Positions 3,192-45,219 of a DNA stretch of 64,000 nucleotides are shown one piece after another. Position numbers and translations under genes: made by a program. Within the stretch, counting starts at the first letter, position 1; every line of letters begins with the position of its first letter. Origin of the DNA: Alphaproteobacteria bacterium (lineage in GTDB: Bacteria; Pseudomonadota; Alphaproteobacteria; MPNO01); NCBI GenBank assembly GCA_964291675.2, contig OZ219866.1, positions 384,001-448,000 of the forward strand. The letters are read 5' to 3'. The notes under the pieces are model-generated. The model made no database searches. It was given only the letters and a program-made list of their open reading frames with translations, and was not told where the DNA came from.

Positions 3192-4427
3192 ATGAGCGCA
3201 GTGCCGGAGAGCGAGCAGCAATTCTACCGGATCAAGCGGTTGCCGCCCTATGTGTTCGCCGAGGTGAACGCGATGAAGGCGGCGGCGCGCGCGGCCGGCG
3301 AGGACATCATCGATTTCGGCATGGGCAACCCCGACGCCCCCTCCCCGCCGCATGTCGTCGCCAAGCTGGTCGAGGCGGTGCAGGACCCGAAGACCCACCG
3401 CTATTCCAACTCGCGCGGCATCCGCGGGCTCAGGCGGGCCATCGCGGCCTATTACGAACGCCGCTTCGGGGTGACCCTCGACCCGGAGCGCGAGGCCATC
3501 GCCACGCTCGGCTCCAAGGAGGGCTTCGCCAACCTGGCGATGGCGATCACCAGCCCGGGCGACGTGGTCATCGTCCCCAACCCGTCCTACCCGATCCACG
3601 CCTACGGGTTCATCATCGCCGGCGGCGCGCTGCGCCATGTCCCGGTCGGCCCCGGCATCGACTTCCTGGCCGAGATCGAACGCGCGGCGCGCTACAGCGT
3701 GCCGGCGCCGCTTGCCGTGATCCTCAACTTCCCGGCCAACCCGACCGCGCATGTCGTGGATCTCGGGTTCTACGAGGAGGTGGTCGATTTCTGCCGGTCG
3801 CGCGGCATCTACGTGATCTCCGACCTCGCCTATGCCGAGATCTATTTCGACGACAACCCGCCGCCGTCGATCCTCCAGGTGCCCGGCGCGATCGACATCG
3901 CGGTCGAGTTCACCTCGCTCAGCAAGACCTACTCGATGCCGGGCTGGCGCATCGGCTTCGCGGTCGGCAACCGCCGGCTGATCGAGGCGCTGGCGCGGGT
4001 GAAATCCTATCTCGACTACGGCGCCTTCACCCCGGTCCAGGTCGCCGCGGTGGCCGCGCTCAACGGCCCGCAGGACTGCATCGACGAGACCCGCGCGCTC
4101 TATCGCCGGCGCCGCGACGTGCTGGTCGAGAGCTTCGGCGCCGCCGGGTGGGAGATACCGCCGCCGGACGCGACCATGTTCGCCTGGGCGCCGATCCCGC
4201 CGCGGTTCTCCAATATCGGCTCGCTCGAATTCTCCAAGCTGCTGCTCGACCGGGCCAAGGTCGCGGTCTCGCCCGGCGTCGGGTTCGGCGAGTACGGCGA
4301 GGGCCATGTGCGGATCGCGCTGGTCGAGAACCGCCACCGCATCCGCCAGGCGGCGCGCAACGTCCGCCGCTTCCTCTCCGACACCGACCGCCTGGTCGCC
4401 ATGCCGAAACGGGCGGCGCAGGCCTGA
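3192..4427 (+). CDS. alaC: PLP-dependent class I aminotransferase (AlaC/YfdZ type, often annotated LL-DAP aminotransferase)
   Basis: FYRIKRLPPYVF, DFGMGNPD, DLAYAEI, SLSKTYSMPGWRIG; position upstream of hom is typical. Confidence 0.88.
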   Translation: MSAVPESEQQFYRIKRLPPYVFAEVNAMKAAARAAGEDIIDFGMGNPDAPSPPHVVAKLVEAVQDPKTHRYSNSRGIRGLRRAIAAYYERRFGVTLDPEREAIATLGSKEGFANLAMAITSPGDVVIVPNPSYPIHAYGFIIAGGALRHVPVGPGIDFLAEIERAARYSVPAPLAVILNFPANPTAHVVDLGFYEEVVDFCRSRGIYVISDLAYAEIYFDDNPPPSILQVPGAIDIAVEFTSLSKTYSMPGWRIGFAVGNRRLIEALARVKSYLDYGAFTPVQVAAVAALNGPQDCIDETRALYRRRRDVLVESFGAAGWEIPPPDATMFAWAPIPPRFSNIGSLEFSKLLLDRAKVAVSPGVGFGEYGEGHVRIALVENRHRIRQAARNVRRFLSDTDRLVAMPKRAAQA

Positions 4428-5722
4428 TGGCACCGCTCGCGGTCGCGCTGGCGGGGCTCGGCACGGTCGGCGCGGGCGTCTTCGCGCTGCTCAGGGACCG
4501 GGCGGAGACTCTGGCCGGCCGCGCCGGGCGGCCGATCCGGGTGGTCGCCGTCTCGGCGCGCGACCGCAGCCGCGACCGCGGCATCGATCTCGACGGCGTC
4601 GCCTGGTTCGACGACGCGGCGGCGATGGCGCGCGAGGCGGAGGCGGACGTCCTCGTCGAGCTGATCGGCGGCGCCGACGGCATCGCGAGGGCGGCCTGCG
4701 AGGCGGCGCTCGATGCCGGCCGCGACGTGGTGACCGCCAACAAGGCGCTGCTCGCCAAGCACGGCACCGGCATCGCGCGGCGCGCCGAAGCGTCGGGCCG
4801 GACGCTGGGCTACGAGGCGGCGGTCGCCGGCGGCATTCCGATCGTCAAGGCGCTGCGCGAGGGGCTGGCGGCCAACCGCATCGCCGCCATCTACGGCATC
4901 CTCAACGGGACCTGCAACTACATCCTCACCGAGATGCGCACGACCGGCAGGCCGTTCGAGGACGTGCTGGCCGATGCGCAGGCGCTCGGCTACGCCGAGG
5001 CCGATCCGCATTTCGACATCGACGGCATCGACGCGGCGCACAAGCTCTCCATCCTCACCGCGCTCGCCTTCGGCACCGAGATCGATTTCGACGGCGTCCA
5101 TGTCGAGGGCATCCGGCATGTCTCGGCCGACGATATCGTGTTCGCCGACGAGCTCGGCTACCGCATCAAGCTGCTCGGCATCGCCCGGCGCACCGGGCAC
5201 GGCATCGAGCAGCGGGTGCATGCCTGCATGATCCCGCAAACCGCGCCGCTCGCCCGCGTCGAAGGCGTGTTCAACGCCGTCGTCGCCGAGGGCGACAGCG
5301 TCGGACCGACGGTCTATGAGGGGCGCGGCGCCGGGGCTGGCCCGACCGCATCGGCGGTGGTCGCAGACCTGGTCGACCTCGCCCGCGGCCTCCGCCTGCC
5401 GGTCTTCGCCGCGCCGGCGGCGAACCTGCTGCCGGCGGAGACCGCGGCGATGGACCGCCATGTCGGCCCCTATTACCTGCGTCTCATGGTGGTCGACCGG
5501 CCGGGGGTCATCGCCGACGTCGCCGCGGCGCTCCGCGACGAGCAGATCTCGATGGAATCGATGATCCAGCGCGGCCGCGCGCCGGGCGAGCCGGTGCCGG
5601 TGGTGCTGACCACCCACGAGACGGCGGAGGCGGCGATGTCGCGCGCCCTCGCCCGGATCGAGCGGCTCGGCAGCGTGGTCGAGCCGCCGCGCATGATTCG
5701 CATCGAATCGCTGGTAAGCTGA
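4427..5722 (+). CDS. hom: Homoserine dehydrogenase with C-terminal ACT domain
   Basis: GLGTVG, VVTANKA, EAAVAGGIP, GILNGTCNYIL, GYAEADP, GRGAGAGPTASAV; TGATG overlap with upstream gene. Confidence 0.96.
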   Translation: MAPLAVALAGLGTVGAGVFALLRDRAETLAGRAGRPIRVVAVSARDRSRDRGIDLDGVAWFDDAAAMAREAEADVLVELIGGADGIARAACEAALDAGRDVVTANKALLAKHGTGIARRAEASGRTLGYEAAVAGGIPIVKALREGLAANRIAAIYGILNGTCNYILTEMRTTGRPFEDVLADAQALGYAEADPHFDIDGIDAAHKLSILTALAFGTEIDFDGVHVEGIRHVSADDIVFADELGYRIKLLGIARRTGHGIEQRVHACMIPQTAPLARVEGVFNAVVAEGDSVGPTVYEGRGAGAGPTASAVVADLVDLARGLRLPVFAAPAANLLPAETAAMDRHVGPYYLRLMVVDRPGVIADVAAALRDEQISMESMIQRGRAPGEPVPVVLTTHETAEAAMSRALARIERLGSVVEPPRMIRIESLVS

Positions 5723-5742
5723 CCGCCGAAGGGAGCGAGATC

Positions 5743-6723
5743 ATGACCGAGCCCGCCTCGACAATGGACCGCAACCTTGCGCTCGAGGTGGTCAGGGTCA
5801 CCGAGGCGGCGGCGCTCGCGGCATCGCGGCTGATGGGCCGCGGCGACGAGCGCGCGGCCGACCAGGTCGCGGTGGATGCGATGCGGGGCGCGCTCAACAG
5901 CCTCGCCATCGAGGGCACCGTGGTGATCGGCGAAGGCGAGCGAGACGAGGCCCCGATGCTCTATATCGGCGAGAAGGTGGGCGCCGGCGGCGGACCCAAG
6001 ATCGACATCGCGCTCGACCCGCTGGAAGGCACGACGATCACCGCCAAGGGGCTGACCAACGCGCTCGCCGTGGTGGCGATGGCCGAGGAGGACGGGTTTC
6101 TCAACGCGCCCGACGTCTATATGGACAAGATCGCCGTCGGCGGCGGGCTGCCCGAGGGCGTGGTCGATCTCGACGAGAGCCCGGGCGACAATCTCGAGAG
6201 CCTCGCCGGGGCCAAGGGGGTGGATGTCTCCGACCTGGTCGCCTGCATCCTCGACCGCCCGCGTCACGAAGAGCTGATCGCACGGGTGCGCGAGGCGGGC
6301 GCCCGCATCATGCTGATCACCGACGGCGACGTGTCGGGGGTGATCGCGACCTCGCAGAAGGAGAGCGGCGTCGACATCTATCTCGGCTCGGGCGGCGCGC
6401 CGGAGGGGGTGTTGGCCGCCGCGGCGCTGCGCTGCATCGGCGGGCAGATGCAGGGCCGGCTGATCTTCCGCAACGACGAGGAGCGGCGCCGGGCGGCGAA
6501 TTGCGGGATCGCCGATCTCGACCGCAAGTACGGGCTGCTGGAGCTCGCCGACGGGGACGTGATGTTCGCCGCCACCGGGGTGACCAACGGCACCATGCTG
6601 CGCGGTGTGCGGCGCGAGGCCGGGCGCGCCTTCACCCATTCCATGGTCATGCGCTCGAAGACCGGGACGGTGCGGCTGATCGAGGCCCATCACAACCTGG
6701 AGCGCAAGGCCAGCCTCGGCTAG
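5743..6723 (+). CDS. glpX: Class II fructose-1,6-bisphosphatase
   Basis: VRVTEAAA, VVIGEGERDEAPMLYIGE, DPLEGT, DGDV, GGAPEGV. Confidence 0.96.
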   Translation: MTEPASTMDRNLALEVVRVTEAAALAASRLMGRGDERAADQVAVDAMRGALNSLAIEGTVVIGEGERDEAPMLYIGEKVGAGGGPKIDIALDPLEGTTITAKGLTNALAVVAMAEEDGFLNAPDVYMDKIAVGGGLPEGVVDLDESPGDNLESLAGAKGVDVSDLVACILDRPRHEELIARVREAGARIMLITDGDVSGVIATSQKESGVDIYLGSGGAPEGVLAAAALRCIGGQMQGRLIFRNDEERRRAANCGIADLDRKYGLLELADGDVMFAATGVTNGTMLRGVRREAGRAFTHSMVMRSKTGTVRLIEAHHNLERKASLG

Positions 6724-41367: not shown

Positions 41368-42597
41368 ATGGCCGACAAGACGATACTCGTCGTGGGAACC
41401 TACGACACCAAGTCCCCGGAGCTCGCCTACATGGCCGACCGCATCCGCGCGCTCGGCGGCGGCGTGCTCGCCATGGACATGAGCGTGCTGGGCGATCCCG
41501 ACATCCCGGTCGACTACTCGAAGCACGACGTGGCCCGGGCCGGCGGCGGCTCGATCCGCCAGGCGGTCGATTCCGGCCACGAGAACGCCGCCATGCAGAT
41601 CATGGCCGGCGGCGCATCGGCGCTCGCCGCCGAGCTCCACGGACGGGGAGAATTCGACGGCATCGTGATCCTCGGCGGCACCATGGGGACCGATGCGGCG
41701 CTCGACATCTGCGGGGCGCTGCCGCTGGGCGTGCCCAAATACGTCGTCTCGACGATCTCCTTCTCGCCGCTGATCCCGCCCGGCCGGCTGTCGGCGGACG
41801 TCCAGATGATCCTGTGGGCGGGCGGCCTCTACGGGCTGAATTCGGTCTGCAAGGCGACGCTCAGCCAGGCGGCCGGCGCCGTGCTCGGCGCCGCGCGGGC
41901 CGCCGAGGCGCCGGCGGAGGACCGCCCGGTCGTCGGCATGACCTCGCTGGGCTCGGCCTCGATGAAGTACATGACCGCGCTGAAGCCCGCTTTGGAGGCG
42001 CGCGGCTACGAGGTCGCCATTTTCCACGCGACCGGCATGGGCGGGATGGCGTTCGAGAGCATCGCCTCGCGAGGCGGGTTCTGCTGCGTGATGGATTTCG
42101 CCCTCGTCGAGCTCGGCAATCTGATGATGGGCTCCGTCGTCAAGGCCGGAGAGGACCGCCTGCTGGGCGCGGGCCGCGCCGGGACCCCCCAGATCGTCGC
42201 GCCTGGATACCTCAACCTGGTCCACATCCCGACCTGGCAGGACCCGCCGCCGCAATTCGCCGACCGGCCGTTCCACACCCACAACCGGCTGGTCAAGTCG
42301 GGGCTGCTCGACGCGGCGGAGCGCAGGGCCATCGCCCGCGAGGTCGGCCGGCGGCTCGGGGAGAGCCGGGGGCCCGCGCATTTCATCCTGCCCAGGCGGG
42401 GCATCGTGCAATGGGACCGGCCGGGATACGAGGCGCACGACCCCGAGGGAATGGCGGCCTTCGCCGACGAGCTCCGCAAATCCGTCGCCGCGCCGGTCCG
42501 CATGACCGAGCTCGACTGCCACATCAACGACCCGGAATTTTGCGCCGCGGCGCTGGAGATCTTCGATCGCTGGGTCGCGGACGGCACGATCGGCTGA
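41368..42597 (+). CDS. UPF0261/Tm-1-like ATP-binding domain protein
   Basis: VGTYDTKSPE, GGTMGT, LPLGVPKYVVST, FHATGMGG, HINDPEF. Confidence 0.9.
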   Translation: MADKTILVVGTYDTKSPELAYMADRIRALGGGVLAMDMSVLGDPDIPVDYSKHDVARAGGGSIRQAVDSGHENAAMQIMAGGASALAAELHGRGEFDGIVILGGTMGTDAALDICGALPLGVPKYVVSTISFSPLIPPGRLSADVQMILWAGGLYGLNSVCKATLSQAAGAVLGAARAAEAPAEDRPVVGMTSLGSASMKYMTALKPALEARGYEVAIFHATGMGGMAFESIASRGGFCCVMDFALVELGNLMMGSVVKAGEDRLLGAGRAGTPQIVAPGYLNLVHIPTWQDPPPQFADRPFHTHNRLVKSGLLDAAERRAIAREVGRRLGESRGPAHFILPRRGIVQWDRPGYEAHDPEGMAAFADELRKSVAAPVRMTELDCHINDPEFCAAALEIFDRWVADGTIG

Positions 42598-42647
42598 GGC
42601 GGGAGCCGAGCCGAAGGACGCTGCTGCTCCCCCCATCGTCACCCCCT

Positions 42648-42779
42648 CCGTCATGGCCGGACTCGATCCGGCCATCCACGCGGCGTCTCCACCCGCACGA
42701 CGGTCGGACGGGAGGGGTGGCGGCGCCCGTGAGTGCCCGAAAGAGCCTCGGACTCGCTCCGGAGGCCGGGGATGACGGT
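42648..42779. repeat. Second palindromic repeat family, full doublet
   Basis: CCGTCATGGCCGGACTCGATCCGGCCATCCACG ... degenerate inverted arm ending GGGATGACGG. Confidence 0.7.
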
Positions 42780-42878
42780 GTAGGGCGGGGCCCTATCGAC
42801 GGTCGCGCCGAAAAGCCTTTCGCTCTTCCCCCAAATCCCCGATCTTTGCGCGGATGGTGATGCAGGACGGGAGGTCAG

Positions 42879-42997
42879 GCGCCGGTGTTCGAGGAGCCGA
42901 CGCCTCTCACCGCCTCCGTCCGGCTCGGTCTCGTGCTCGGCCTGGCCTATGGCGCGACTGCCTCCCGGCGCTCGTGCCTTCCGCGACGGCTTGTGCC
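42879..42997 (+). pseudogene. Degenerate duplicate of the yeeE 5' end
   Basis: 42879-42952 matches 44191-44279 (7 mismatches in the 65-nt core plus a 15-nt deletion); VFEEPTPLTASVRLGLVLGLAYG vs FEELTPLAASVLLGLALGLAYG. Confidence 0.88.
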
Positions 42998-43069
42998 CAT
43001 CGGTGCGACGCATAACGTGTTAACGGGACGGCGTGCTAGCCGCCGGCTCAGAGTGATTGGAGCCGAAGT

Positions 43070-43879
43070 ATGAGCCCAGATGGATGGCTCGGACTGCTGG
43101 CGGCCGCTTTGGGAGGCGGCCTTGTCGTCAAGTTCCTGGATATCCTGTACGCGGAGGTTCGGCGCCGTTCGGAGAGCTCGGAGGAGGCCGAGCGGTTCGT
43201 CGACGAGCATCTGGATCCGCTGCTCAAGGCGGCCGACGAGCTGGTGGGCAAGCTCGTGTCTTTGGCTGGCGAGGACTTCACAAGTCTCCGCAACGTGGAT
43301 CCGAATGCCGACCGTATCGACAACAACGACTTCGTGAGCCTGGTTTTCCTCATGGCAACGTTTTGGGCTAACATCGAAATCATTCGCCGCGAAGGACTCT
43401 CCGTATCGATCGTGAAGGACGTTCGCGGCCAAAGACTGCAAAGCTTCTTGAATTGCATCGAGTCTCGCGGGGTGCGGATCGTCGACCGAATTTCGCAACG
43501 CGCAGTCGGGGAGCTGATGCTCGCCAACCGCCAGGACGGCACCTTGGAGTCCCGGTTTTTCGTCGATTTCGTACGCTCGATGGAGACCGATCCAAACGCC
43601 CGCCGTTGGCTGCGGCCCTTGGCTCACGCGCTGTCGCGCACCCGCCATACATCGGAACGCCAGAGACTCTTGAAGTACGGCATCGTCATTCACGCGATGA
43701 TCGACTCGCTCGATCCCGGGTATCAGGTCACGCGACGGCGCCCTTCGTACCCGAACAAGCTGTCCAACAAGTCGTGGCGGGATCTGAAATACCGAGTTTT
43801 CGGCCAATACCTAAAGTTCGTATCGGAACCCGAAAAATATACAGGGCCGCCCAAGAGAAAGCGGCCCCGAAGAGGGTAA
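43070..43879 (+). CDS. Hypothetical protein, one N-terminal TM helix, basic C-terminus
   Basis: 269-aa ORF, GGAG upstream, WLGLLAAALGGGLVVKFLDILY; protein-like composition; no family recognised. Confidence 0.75.
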   Translation: MSPDGWLGLLAAALGGGLVVKFLDILYAEVRRRSESSEEAERFVDEHLDPLLKAADELVGKLVSLAGEDFTSLRNVDPNADRIDNNDFVSLVFLMATFWANIEIIRREGLSVSIVKDVRGQRLQSFLNCIESRGVRIVDRISQRAVGELMLANRQDGTLESRFFVDFVRSMETDPNARRWLRPLAHALSRTRHTSERQRLLKYGIVIHAMIDSLDPGYQVTRRRPSYPNKLSNKSWRDLKYRVFGQYLKFVSEPEKYTGPPKRKRPRRG

Positions 43880-43967
43880 GGCGGCGCGAAGGGACTTTGG
43901 CTCTCTCGCTTGGAGACAACGGAACGTCCGTTGGGCCGCCTCTATTCCGTTGATGTGGGTTCACATC
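43844..43967 (+). ncRNA. Candidate structured RNA (multi-stem)
   Basis: Stems GGGCCGC/GCGGCCC, AGGCGGC/GCCGCCT, TCTC/GAGA, CAACGGA/TCCGTTG, GATGTG/CACATC within 124 nt; strand assumed. Confidence 0.4.
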
Positions 43968-44196
43968 TCAAAGCGGATCTTAGCGCGGAAGCACTCAAGA
44001 GTCCACAGCTATGCGCTCTTCCGCCAAGGGTGCCCCCGTGGAAGATCGTTGCACGGATGGCATTCCCTCCGACAGGAGCGTCTTCGGACGAAAACCCTTT
44101 TCCTTCAGGGATTATTCCTCAATCTTGAAGGTGAAGGCAGCGCTACCATCGTCACGCGCCGCCCCGTGTCACCAATTCTGGGTGGAGCAAGCGCCG

Positions 44197-45219
44197 GTGT
44201 TCGAAGAGTTCGGTTTCGAGGAGCTGACGCCGCTCGCCGCCTCCGTCCTGCTCGGCCTCGCGCTCGGCCTCGCCTATGGGGTGCTGGCGCAGCGGAGCGC
44301 CTTCTGCCTGCGCCGCAGCCTGGTCGGGCGATGGCGCGACTGCCTGCCGGCGCTGGGCGCCTGGGCGATGGCGCTGGCCTGCGCGATCGCCGGCACCAGG
44401 CTCGCCGTGGCGGTCGGGCTGATCTCCTTCGAGGAGCACCGCTTTCTCGCCGCCGACCTGCCGCTCGCCTCGGTGCTCGTGGGCGGCGCGCTGTTCGGCG
44501 CCGGCATGGTGCTGACCGGCGGCTGCGCCTCGCGGCTCGCGGTTCTGGTGGGCACGGGGAATCTGCGGGCGCTGCTGGTGCTGGTCGTCTTCGCGGTGGT
44601 CGCGCTGGCGGCGATGAAGGGTGCGCTCGCGCCGCTCCGCCTCGCGCTCGGCGCCGCGTCCGTCCCGGACGGCGGGGCCTCGCTCGCCGACCTTCCGGGC
44701 GGCGAGATCTGGCCGCTGGCGCTGGCGCTGGCGCTTGCCGTGCTCGCGTTGCGCACCGCCGCGCCGCTCTCCCATCTGGCGATGGCCGGCGCGATCGGGC
44801 TGCTGGTGCCGCTCGGCTGGGTCGGCACCGGGTTCCTGCTGCTCGACGACTTCGATCCCATCCCGCTGCAGTCGATGGGCTTCACCGGGCCGATGGCCGA
44901 CACATTGTTCTGGACGGTGGCGGCGACCTCGATCCCGGCGGGGTTCGGTACCGGGCTGGCCGCGGGCGTCCTCGCCGGCAGCCTGGCGGCGGCGCTGGCG
45001 GCGGGCGAGTTCCGCTGGCAGAGCCTGGAAGGCCCGCGCCAGACCGGGCGCTACCTCGCCGGCGCGGCGATGATGGGGGTGGGCGGCGTGCTGGCCGGCG
45101 GCTGCACGGTCGGCGCCGGCCTCTCCGGCGTCTCGACGGCGAGCCTCGCGGCCCTGCTTGCGCTGGCCGCCATGGCGGGGGCGGCGCGGACCACTGGGGC
45201 GGTGCTGGAGCGGCGGTAG
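44197..45219 (+). CDS. yeeE: YeeE/YedE family sulfur-compound (thiosulfate) transporter
   Basis: QRSAFCLR, GMVLTGGCASR, GVLAGGCTVGAG (three conserved Cys), multiple TM segments; GTG start. Confidence 0.9.
   Translation: MFEEFGFEELTPLAASVLLGLALGLAYGVLAQRSAFCLRRSLVGRWRDCLPALGAWAMALACAIAGTRLAVAVGLISFEEHRFLAADLPLASVLVGGALFGAGMVLTGGCASRLAVLVGTGNLRALLVLVVFAVVALAAMKGALAPLRLALGAASVPDGGASLADLPGGEIWPLALALALAVLALRTAAPLSHLAMAGAIGLLVPLGWVGTGFLLLDDFDPIPLQSMGFTGPMADTLFWTVAATSIPAGFGTGLAAGVLAGSLAAALAAGEFRWQSLEGPRQTGRYLAGAAMMGVGGVLAGGCTVGAGLSGVSTASLAALLALAAMAGAARTTGAVLERR

Follow-up and report, generated by a model that had tools for sequence, protein, structure and literature searches.

A conserved multi-hairpin element at the end of a 269-aa protein gene and its reading as a predicted minus-strand small RNA gene

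The window analysed here is a stretch of 64,000 nt from an Alphaproteobacteria bacterium (contig OZ219866.1, positions 384,001 to 448,000 of the forward strand), and the subjects of this report are a plus-strand gene at 43070..43879, which encodes a protein of 269 amino acids (aa), and a dense group of hairpins at 43844-43967 that overlaps the end of that gene. The stems that an earlier note on this DNA had named were all found when the sequence was read directly. GGGCCGC (43844-50) pairs with GCGGCCC (43861-67) inside the gene's last codons, AGGCGGC (43879-85) with GCCGCCT (43935-41) as a closing stem, CAACGGA (43917-23) with TCCGTTG (43927-33) as an inner hairpin, and GATGTG (43952-57) with CACATC (43962-67); TTCCGTTG at 43945-52 is a second copy and a candidate for alternative pairing. 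Folding energies were compared with those of shuffled sequences, a check that the note had proposed, and the 124-nt segment 43844-43967 was more stable than shuffles on both strands. On the plus strand its energy was -55.2 kcal/mol (shuffles -45.65 ± 3.51; z -2.72; 2 of 200 as stable) and on the minus strand -55.1 kcal/mol (shuffles -40.29 ± 3.98; z -3.72; 0 of 200 as stable), and the 139-nt minus-strand RNA of the window gave a minimum free energy (MFE) of -58.7 kcal/mol and a z of -4.10. A search of 42000-45000 against Rfam 15 with cmscan (both strands, E <= 1) found no family that matches the element; the sole match, to Acido-1 at 42617-42677 (19.9 bits against a gathering value of 50, E 0.96), is at chance level and lies outside it.

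The gene at 43070..43879 had been called an orphan, but a word-seeded HMMER search yielded at least 400 relatives of its protein at E <= 0.001 among 3496 candidates. The best 120 of these 400 are 54-84% identical to it, almost all have lengths of 240-300 aa, no precomputed Pfam domain is listed for any of them, and every name given to them is 'hypothetical'. An alignment of 25 relatives has a mean column identity of 60% and 48 invariant columns, with invariant arginines at R133, R136, R140, R144, R190 and R197 in addition to a basic tail. No family was found for the window protein in Pfam, PADLOC, NCBIfam or PHROGs, nor for the 25 relatives in Pfam or PADLOC; a profile search for the family in PDB sequences found nothing (best E 0.26), a search of the ESM Atlas returned unnamed clusters only, phage records gave no match, and no longer, fused forms of the family were found, which is weak evidence. 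The AlphaFold2 model based on the 25-row alignment is all-alpha (predicted local distance difference test 86.8; predicted template modelling score 0.81), with a long helix at residues 3-67 followed by a bundle. Foldseek returned 0 matches to this model in the PDB at E <= 0.001, and the best match of VIA-align, the ClyA pore 6mrt_A (Z 8.7, root mean square deviation 3.8, 147 residues aligned), as well as its match to XaxA (Z 6.4), fall below the Z of about 13 that VIA-align states as the noise level for helical bundles. From the open reading frame (ORF), its translation and the model, the protein is described as an N-terminal hydrophobic helix, an all-helical bundle and a basic C-terminal tail; because a hydrophobic, glycine-rich segment (residues ~6-20) stands directly before RRR, an N-terminal membrane anchor may be inferred. 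Both the gene and the stretch downstream of it are present once in the source genome.

Conservation and covariation downstream of homologues, which the earlier note had also proposed to examine, were found. Pattern scans with one genome per species returned first 9 and then 64 loci that encode relatives. Judged by record title, the carriers are Alpha-, Beta- and Gammaproteobacteria, together with a few bins assigned to Actinomycetota, Chloroflexi, Acidobacteria, Planctomycetes and others. In the DNA listed for the 3' side of the stop the same layout recurred: a G+C-rich hairpin over the G-P-P-K-R-x-P codons, then a long stem GGCGG.../...CCGCC, the motif TTTA(T/G)..CGT.G, a short hairpin of variable sequence and, ~30-40 nt further, a (T)GTCAA box. 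A covariance model, R1, was made from 7 close sequences and a hand-written structure (139 positions, 36 pairs). It scored 144.4 bits (E 1.7e-35) on the window RNA. Of the 66 places examined, 56 gave a match at E <= 3e-6, each on the strand that does not encode the protein.

Read in the minus orientation, the element resolves into the parts of a predicted cis-antisense small RNA (sRNA) of ~135 nt at 43833..43971, a prediction that draws on R1, MFE and covariation; its last ~45 nt would overlap the gene's last codons. The 5' hairpin P3 (43952..43967, GAUGUG/CACAUC) lies outside the coding overlap and corresponds to helix 1 of the model, in which 6 of 6 pairs show two-sided changes and 91.4% of cells are paired. 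It is joined by a conserved single-stranded linker, CAACGGAAUAGAGG, to P2 (43878..43942), a long stem in three parts with the closing helix GGCGGCC/GCGCCGCC, a conserved inner helix GGAC/GUCC and a variable apical hairpin; helices 2-4, which belong to P2, are 95.0%, 99.0% and 93.4% paired, and all 20 of their pairs have changed on both sides. P1 (43833..43869) consists of a terminator-like hairpin at 43869..43842 and a U-rich tail, UAUAUUUUU, at 43841..43833. Its hairpin, helix 5 of the model, is 96.7% paired in the 56 sequences and is antisense to the codons for P-E-K-Y-x-G-P-P-K-R-x-R-P, within the gene's last 15 codons. The internal loops of P2 and the linker are conserved in sequence across hosts whose proteins are only 45-80% identical, with the consensus elements UAAAGGCGG, ACGGACGU.CCG and CCAAAGUC.CU.CG. 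A peptide encoded within the sRNA was considered and, on inspection by eye, rejected, as AUGs in P3 reach a conserved UAA in frame in some copies and not in others, among them the window, which has AUG-UGA. A 78-aa ORF at 43964..43728 on the minus strand passes through the predicted terminator.

For the counting of pairs, R1 was re-run on the 56 matching places and the resulting alignment was used. Standard pairs made up 95.0% of 1757 cells (shuffles 75.7 ± 0.6, with 0 of 500 as high), 35 of the 36 pairs had changes on both sides (shuffles 21.1 ± 2.1), and 341 cells were doubly changed (shuffles 81 ± 9.4); when the 3' partners were slid by 1-3 columns as a control, pairing fell to 32-50%, with a maximum of 49.7%. 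Single-sequence folds in the RNA orientation repeatedly gave the P3 hairpin, the single-stranded linker, the long P2 with its inner helices and the P1 terminator, and RNAalifold, run on 27 sequences aligned plainly with MAFFT, predicted 24 pairs that cover P2 and a portion of P1, of which 17 are compensated. The hairpin at the coding end, the closing stem and the GATGTG/CACATC hairpin are conserved behind homologues with compensatory changes. Two pairings that the note had included, the CAACGGA/TCCGTTG inner hairpin and the alternative one with the second TTCCGTTG, are confined to a subfamily. As family-wide structures they were rejected, since across the 56 elements only 59.5% and 59.3% of their cells are paired, against 95% for the supported structure.

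The strand on which the element would be transcribed was addressed through promoter, terminator and mismatch patterns. Promoters of the form -35/N16-18/-10 were scanned for in the 55 nt upstream of the R1 start in the RNA orientation, with 12 as the highest possible score. Best scores averaged 8.31 for the minus strand and 6.51 for the opposite one, against 6.68 ± 0.10 (maximum 6.97) in 200 shuffled sets, and a score of at least 8 was reached on the minus strand in 43 of the 56 loci and on the other strand in 2. The -10 box ends 3-7 nt ahead of the first R1 position in 40 of the 56, and the -35 hexamer is most often TTGACA (17 loci), followed by TGGACT (8 loci). The sRNA promoter predicted for the window is of the sigma-70 type, TGGACT-N17-TAAGAT at 44005..43977 (-), with its -35 box at 44000..44005 and its -10 box 17 nt after that at 43977..43982, so that the predicted RNA start lies at ~43969-43971. 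The (T)GTCAA box of the recurrent layout is TTGACA when read on the minus strand and is therefore explained as a -35 box.

The earlier note had observed that the element lacks a U tract. This holds for the plus strand, on which a simple scan calls no intrinsic terminator and P2 is followed by a conserved UUUA(U/G) that is weak and atypical as a U tract; on the minus strand, however, the first hairpin (43869..43842) is followed by UAUAUUUUUC, and the same scan calls it terminator-like. Read by eye, ~41 of 52 non-redundant loci have a comparable hairpin that is rich in G+C and followed by a T-rich tail. At L035, L057, L080-L083 and L085 the stop codon falls within the loop of the P1 hairpin, so that the arm behind the stop is non-coding, yet it is retained. 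Mismatches were counted as 1x1 mismatches inside helices, in Watson-Crick-only folds (G·U forbidden) in which the two strands are treated alike; 35 were of the G·U type, 11 of the A·C type and 46 of other types (21 of them a recurrent C·C), and the fitted alignment contains 1511 Watson-Crick, 158 G·U and 11 A·C combinations. Because an A·C mismatch on the minus strand is a G·U pair on the plus strand, the G·U excess, taken with the promoter and the terminator, favours an RNA of the minus strand. Mean folding z over the 56 loci was -4.71 on the minus and -3.85 on the plus strand, the minus strand being more negative in 44 of them.

The RNA and the gene are found together. Among 61 genomes drawn from the source genome and its genus, family and order, R1 and the protein profile match the same four (G000, G004, G009 and G010), with one copy each and the RNA adjoining the gene, and 8 of the 11 other genomes of the genus that were searched have neither; no RNA match was seen away from the gene or one of its remnants. 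The protein is encoded in 4 of 72,556 plasmid records, pMRAD07 of Methylobacterium radiotolerans JCM 2831 and three Rhizobium sp. plasmids, and in the two of these records that were fetched R1 matches beside the gene (72.5 and 79.5 bits); on pMRAD07 the gene that faces the element is MRAD2831_RS63925. The 117 ORFs adjoining 31 loci are heterogeneous and include no recurrent partner gene, integrase or transposase. Restriction-modification, transposase, toxin-antitoxin, abortive infection (Abi) or CRISPR (clustered regularly interspaced short palindromic repeats) genes are neighbours at 8 of the 31 (L042, L044, L047, L048, L049, L055, L068 and L090), and the remaining loci lie among housekeeping genes. 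The sequences upstream of the gene are unrelated between loci as far as the ribosome-binding site. In the three relatives of the same genus that carry the module, the shared DNA begins 6 nt before the ATG and ends at 44005/44006, which is the outer edge of the predicted -35 box. The segment 43000-44200 has a G+C content of 55-64%, against 70-77% on both flanks.

Decayed copies of the gene, whether truncated, frameshifted or interrupted by nonsense codons, occur at 8 of the 66 places. C-terminal remnants of 29-94 codons are accompanied by a full-length R1 match and a good promoter at L095, L097, L099, L100 and a second site of L091 (6331-6552); the genome of L099 also carries an intact copy, L053, at a distance of ~10 kb, and at L093 the gene is frameshifted. 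In L032 (2501-2524 region) and in G009, the nearly invariant Trp-6 codon is replaced by a stop (TGG to TGA). The proteins of these two belong to lineages ~68% and 82% identical to the window protein, and the next codon in L032 is TTG; the shared stop may represent independent knock-outs, a restart or read-through. G009 also carries an insertion sequence of ~2.3 kb in the loop of the P1 hairpin (G009:C14 about 3879-6190; corresponding to L012 2290-2330 and L105 1490-1530), with the 9-mer CAAAAGAAG repeated on both sides and a coding region for a protein with a zinc-ribbon-like N-terminus, so that, with the TGA at codon 6, both partners of the module are broken in that genome. Loss of the protein with retention of the RNA is expected if the protein is costly, and is also expected because the RNA terminator needs the gene's last codons.

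In silico, the locus shows a predicted promoter-to-terminator RNA gene that is convergent and overlapping with the protein gene, is co-inherited with it and has a conserved, covarying fold. On this sequence evidence, a minus-strand sRNA gene tied to this protein family is considered very probable, and a role of the sRNA as antisense regulator or antitoxin of the gene is given slightly better than even odds. The reading preferred here, with a probability of roughly 0.6, is that the element is the body of a minus-strand sRNA gene convergent with 43070-43879 and that the two form a mobile two-part module resembling a type I toxin-antitoxin system. An RNA of ~135 nt would be transcribed from the minus strand and would end at P1; as that end lies inside the gene, the RNA would be perfectly complementary to the 3' end of the mRNA. 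Pairing would extend over at least 45 nt, or over ~115 nt if the mRNA runs to P2, which on the plus strand is followed by UCUAUU and could conceivably end the gene's mRNA. The duplex would control the mRNA through degradation or blocked expression and would lower the expression of the 269-aa helical protein, which would be a membrane-anchored harmful or effector partner. The conserved loops inside P2 would leave room for a second mode, in which a protein binds the RNA directly, and the pair would be a mobile module complete in itself, carried on plasmids and in low-G+C islands and close to restriction or transposase genes. According to two sources (PMC5848175, PMC6563280), type I antitoxins that overlap the 3' end of the toxin gene work by pairing with the 3' part of the mRNA, which lowers toxin expression.

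Several results weigh against this reading. The window protein, at 269 aa, is far above the size of type I toxins, and its toxicity is presumed. Complementarity between the sRNA and the gene's translation start was no better than in shuffles (mean z -0.25; 2 of 42 below -2). The terminator call in 42600-44400 is not above chance (1 against 1.6 ± 1.3 in shuffles) and the U tract is interrupted, and since a single call of the scan equals the shuffle expectation, the weight of the terminator rests on its conservation. The plus strand too folds well (mean z -3.85), which leaves room for a role in the 3' end of the mRNA. The alignment in which pairs were counted was fitted to the model structure, and its sequences are mutually related. 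Ten of the 66 places have no R1 match; L012, the locus piece of G009 in which the insertion sequence splits the element, is one of them, and the others, mostly the most distant homologues, are L075, L078, L079, L086-L089, L092 and L094. The only RNA-library run with a match (0.07 share of words) consists, like the probable source run, of contigs that carry no strand, start or end, and it touches the element only through a piece of a diverged relative, so that it speaks neither for nor against transcription. Finally, unpaired loop bases are strongly conserved, for which a purely cis-antisense mechanism has no need; this keeps alive a protein-binding role or a use of the same stem as mRNA terminator.

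Codon usage opposite P1 was also compared. The planned test compared two-fold codons in the x-x-K-Y motif with those in the rest of the genes, as a trace of the U tract, and was null when pooled: A/T-ending codons were 54 of 120 in the motif and 1557 of 3442 elsewhere (both 0.45, p = 1). Positive results arose in a post hoc split by codon, with sequences that are not independent: GAA exceeded GAG by 16 to 2 in the motif (303 to 348 elsewhere in the genes), AAA stood to AAG as 26 to 22 (232 to 375 elsewhere), TAC to TAT as 36 to 7 (129 to 149 elsewhere), and the Gly of G-P-P was encoded by GGG in 27 of 30 cases (87 of 345 elsewhere). The C of TAC lengthens the P1 stem, and the biases would fit a hairpin and a U tract imposed on synonymous sites.

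Other explanations for the element were weighed against the same observations. It is rather unlikely, but worth stating, that the module follows a hybrid of type I and type III logic, in which a membrane-anchored effector would be held in check by an RNA acting both as antisense to the mRNA 3' end and, by way of its conserved internal loops, as a protein ligand; such a module might be a new two-part selfish or defence system with an effector family that has no known relatives. To judge by record titles, it would have spread horizontally among Proteobacteria, and a second type of RNA would occur in Acidobacteriota and relatives. Somewhat less likely still is that the minus-strand RNA is real and works mainly by protein binding, as a type III-like antitoxin or as the RNA subunit of a ribonucleoprotein, with the 269-aa protein as partner. 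The sequence conservation of the P2 loops and the linker among hosts with proteins 45-80% identical, which a cis-antisense mechanism does not require, would be accounted for in this way, as would the many invariant arginines and basic tail of the protein, the strict linkage of RNA and gene and the failure of the sRNA to pair with the translation start. However, family and fold searches recognised no RNA-binding or RNase family in the protein, the RNA does not have the tandem-repeat, same-strand, upstream layout of type III antitoxins, remnants of the gene retain the RNA without an intact protein, and the conserved bases are also part of the mRNA 3' end, a possible cause of their conservation. 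An improbable alternative places the function on the plus strand only, as a terminator, a stabilising 3' untranslated region (UTR) or a 3'-UTR-derived sRNA, with no antisense gene. The plus strand does fold better than shuffles (window z -2.72; mean over the 56 loci as given above), the element always lies directly behind the stop codon, and P2 followed by the conserved UUUA(U/G) resembles a weak terminator; but the simple scan calls no plus-strand terminator, and this alternative leaves unexplained the -35/-10 boxes at fixed distance on the other strand (43 of 56 against 2 of 56), the minus-strand U tract after P1, the 35:11 excess of G·U over A·C, and the complete element with its promoter beside gene remnants.

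A reading at the level of DNA is highly improbable: the hairpins would form the folded terminus of a mobile element, for example a cassette site like attC or a subterminal hairpin of the IS200/IS605 type with a TCAA-like cleavage site, and a recombinase acting in trans would recognise them. Its attraction lies in the unrelated contexts, the low-G+C island, the extent of same-genus similarity from 6 nt before the ATG to a single point at 44005/44006, and the (T)GTCAA box near that end; IS608 reportedly cuts after TCAA. The box, however, is explained as TTGACA, from which a -10 box is 17 nt distant, each genome has a single copy and no integrase or transposase recurs as a neighbour, neither a matching left end nor a target duplication was seen, with the upstream flanks unrelated up to the ribosome-binding site, and the G·U bias indicates selection on RNA. 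The core sites of attC have the form RYYYAAC...GTTRRRY, and the arms of the element, compared by eye only, do not fit RYYYAAC/GTTRRRY. A retron-like RNA has a negligible probability. The earlier note had placed the element where RNAs associated with reverse transcriptases (RTs) lie, and a multi-stem RNA beside a gene of unknown function bears them a general resemblance; but the absence of an RT nearby contradicts this. The window contains 0 matches to RVT_1 (the nearest on the same contig is at 1,578,955, more than 1.1 Mb off), the 7 matches in the genome all lie outside it, 0 of the 117 neighbour ORFs of the 31 homologous loci match an RT family, and Rfam gave no match to the element. The note's more general proposal, a structured non-coding RNA or a translational switch, stands in its first half on conservation, covariation and folding energy. 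The switch was placed at the GTG at 43955, which is not a conserved start, because the similarity of relatives to the downstream sulphur-transporter gene (Sulf_transp) starts only near 44187-44198.

With the type I-like module as the preferred reading, the closest parallels are found among convergent antisense pairs. In yonT/SR6 of Bacillus subtilis, as predicted here, an antisense RNA of ~100 nt with its own promoter is convergent with the toxin gene and overlaps its 3' end, and pairs of this type are likewise self-contained two-part modules on mobile DNA. bsrG/SR4 and txpA/RatA are also type I pairs that overlap at the 3' end. The present pair differs in its protein of 269 aa with a folded helical bundle, in its mostly proteobacterial hosts and in the large conserved multi-helix core of its RNA. 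At the level of sequence, the antisense RNA with its own promoter that overlaps an mRNA is matched by the predicted promoter, the predicted terminator and the overlap of at least 45 nt. Type I toxins are small hydrophobic peptides, usually of < ~60 aa; in the 269-aa protein only residues ~6-20 are hydrophobic, and for this reason the module is described as working like a type I system and is not filed as a member. In the par locus of Enterococcus pAD1, the toxin Fst has 33 aa, RNA I and RNA II are convergent and share a terminator region, and pairing also occurs through 5' direct repeats. The present pair likewise has a convergent mRNA and RNA that would end in a shared terminator region, but here the predicted terminator of the RNA falls within the gene's coding region, and the comparison with the translation start showed no pairing above shuffles.

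Two further systems offer partial likenesses. PtaRNA1/XCV2162, the 'plasmid-transferred antisense RNA', is tied to a gene of unknown function, and horizontal transfer has given it a scattered occurrence among Proteobacteria and plasmids. It is listed in Rfam and found in Xanthomonas. The element shares with it the link of a predicted antisense RNA to a gene of unknown function and the patchy, transfer-shaped distribution, but it is a different RNA (no Rfam 15 match) with a different partner protein. In type III systems (ToxIN), which are mobile and linked to defence, the antitoxin RNA consists of tandem repeats upstream of the toxin gene on the same strand and is processed by the toxin. The likeness would lie in a structured RNA that neutralises a sizeable protein toxin in mobile modules, and here the neutralisation is presumed; the single-copy RNA, by contrast, lies downstream on the opposite strand, and 43000-44100 contains no tandem family.

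The RNA is without an Rfam family and the protein without a family in four libraries; the limited full-text literature search was not aimed at this protein family or RNA, and absence from print is not claimed. If the preferred reading is true, an unannotated RNA gene accompanies all intact members examined of a protein family of hundreds that is itself without annotation, and the logic of antisense-RNA toxin-antitoxin systems would be widened from tiny peptides to a large folded membrane protein. Because the RNA terminator is written in the last codons of the protein, it would constrain the C-terminal motif E-K-Y-x-G-P-P-K-R-R-P at synonymous sites, and the locus would show clearly how an RNA on the opposite strand can shape a coding sequence. 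The sRNA promoter would also provide a handle on the function of the family, of which cultured carriers exist.

A different conserved element, with the core GCCCAATGGGTGAC ... GATCCCGGCGGGCCA, was observed behind the gene in the distant homologues L084 (3760-3960), L086 (3715-3930), L087 (3790-4000) and L089 (3720-3930), all given in minus orientation, from bins labelled Acidobacteria, Binataceae and Betaproteobacteria. On the opposite strand its end is a hairpin rich in G+C with a T-rich tail, located immediately beyond the stop codon. It may be a second type of RNA built in the same way; at two loci of this acidobacterial type the simple scan gave no call for a promoter or a terminator. In run X2, probably the source sample, in which the whole stretch occurs near-identically, several further contigs match only the conserved RNA core 43879-43955 at < 90% identity, and several diverged copies of the module from other organisms therefore appear to co-occur in the sample.

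The neighbouring genes in the window, by Pfam, include a homogentisate dioxygenase and a UPF0261 protein, with a Sulf_transp gene (YeeE/YedE-type) downstream and a flavocytochrome c sulphide dehydrogenase gene. On either side of the island lies one copy of a degenerate direct repeat (42876-42990 and 44188-44372). The left copy is a 5'-terminal remnant of the Sulf_transp gene found downstream, with internal deletions and a 65-nt core of 89% identity. The frame of this remnant continues as a 62-codon ORF at 42885-43073, the TGA of which overlaps the ATG of the 43070 gene (ATGA), an arrangement that could give this otherwise promoter-less gene both transcription and translational coupling. Elsewhere, the gene of G009 lies directly behind a Sulf_transp gene and that of G004 directly in front of one. 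G000 has seven RVT_1 genes (C1:916937; C2:1578955, 2121235, 2337221, 3413459, 3469625 and 3481595), none near the window, which fall into two score groups, three at 119.2 bits with 564-aa frames and four at 107.5-109.2 bits with 513-aa frames, and look like multi-copy retroelements such as group II introns. The segment 42625-42795, on which the weak Acido-1 match lies, is a dispersed intergenic repeat of ~100-150 nt with 74 matches at E <= 0.001 in its own genome, often in inverted or tandem clusters, and many matches in related genera; it looks like an element of the repetitive extragenic palindromic (REP) or miniature inverted-repeat transposable element (MITE) type.

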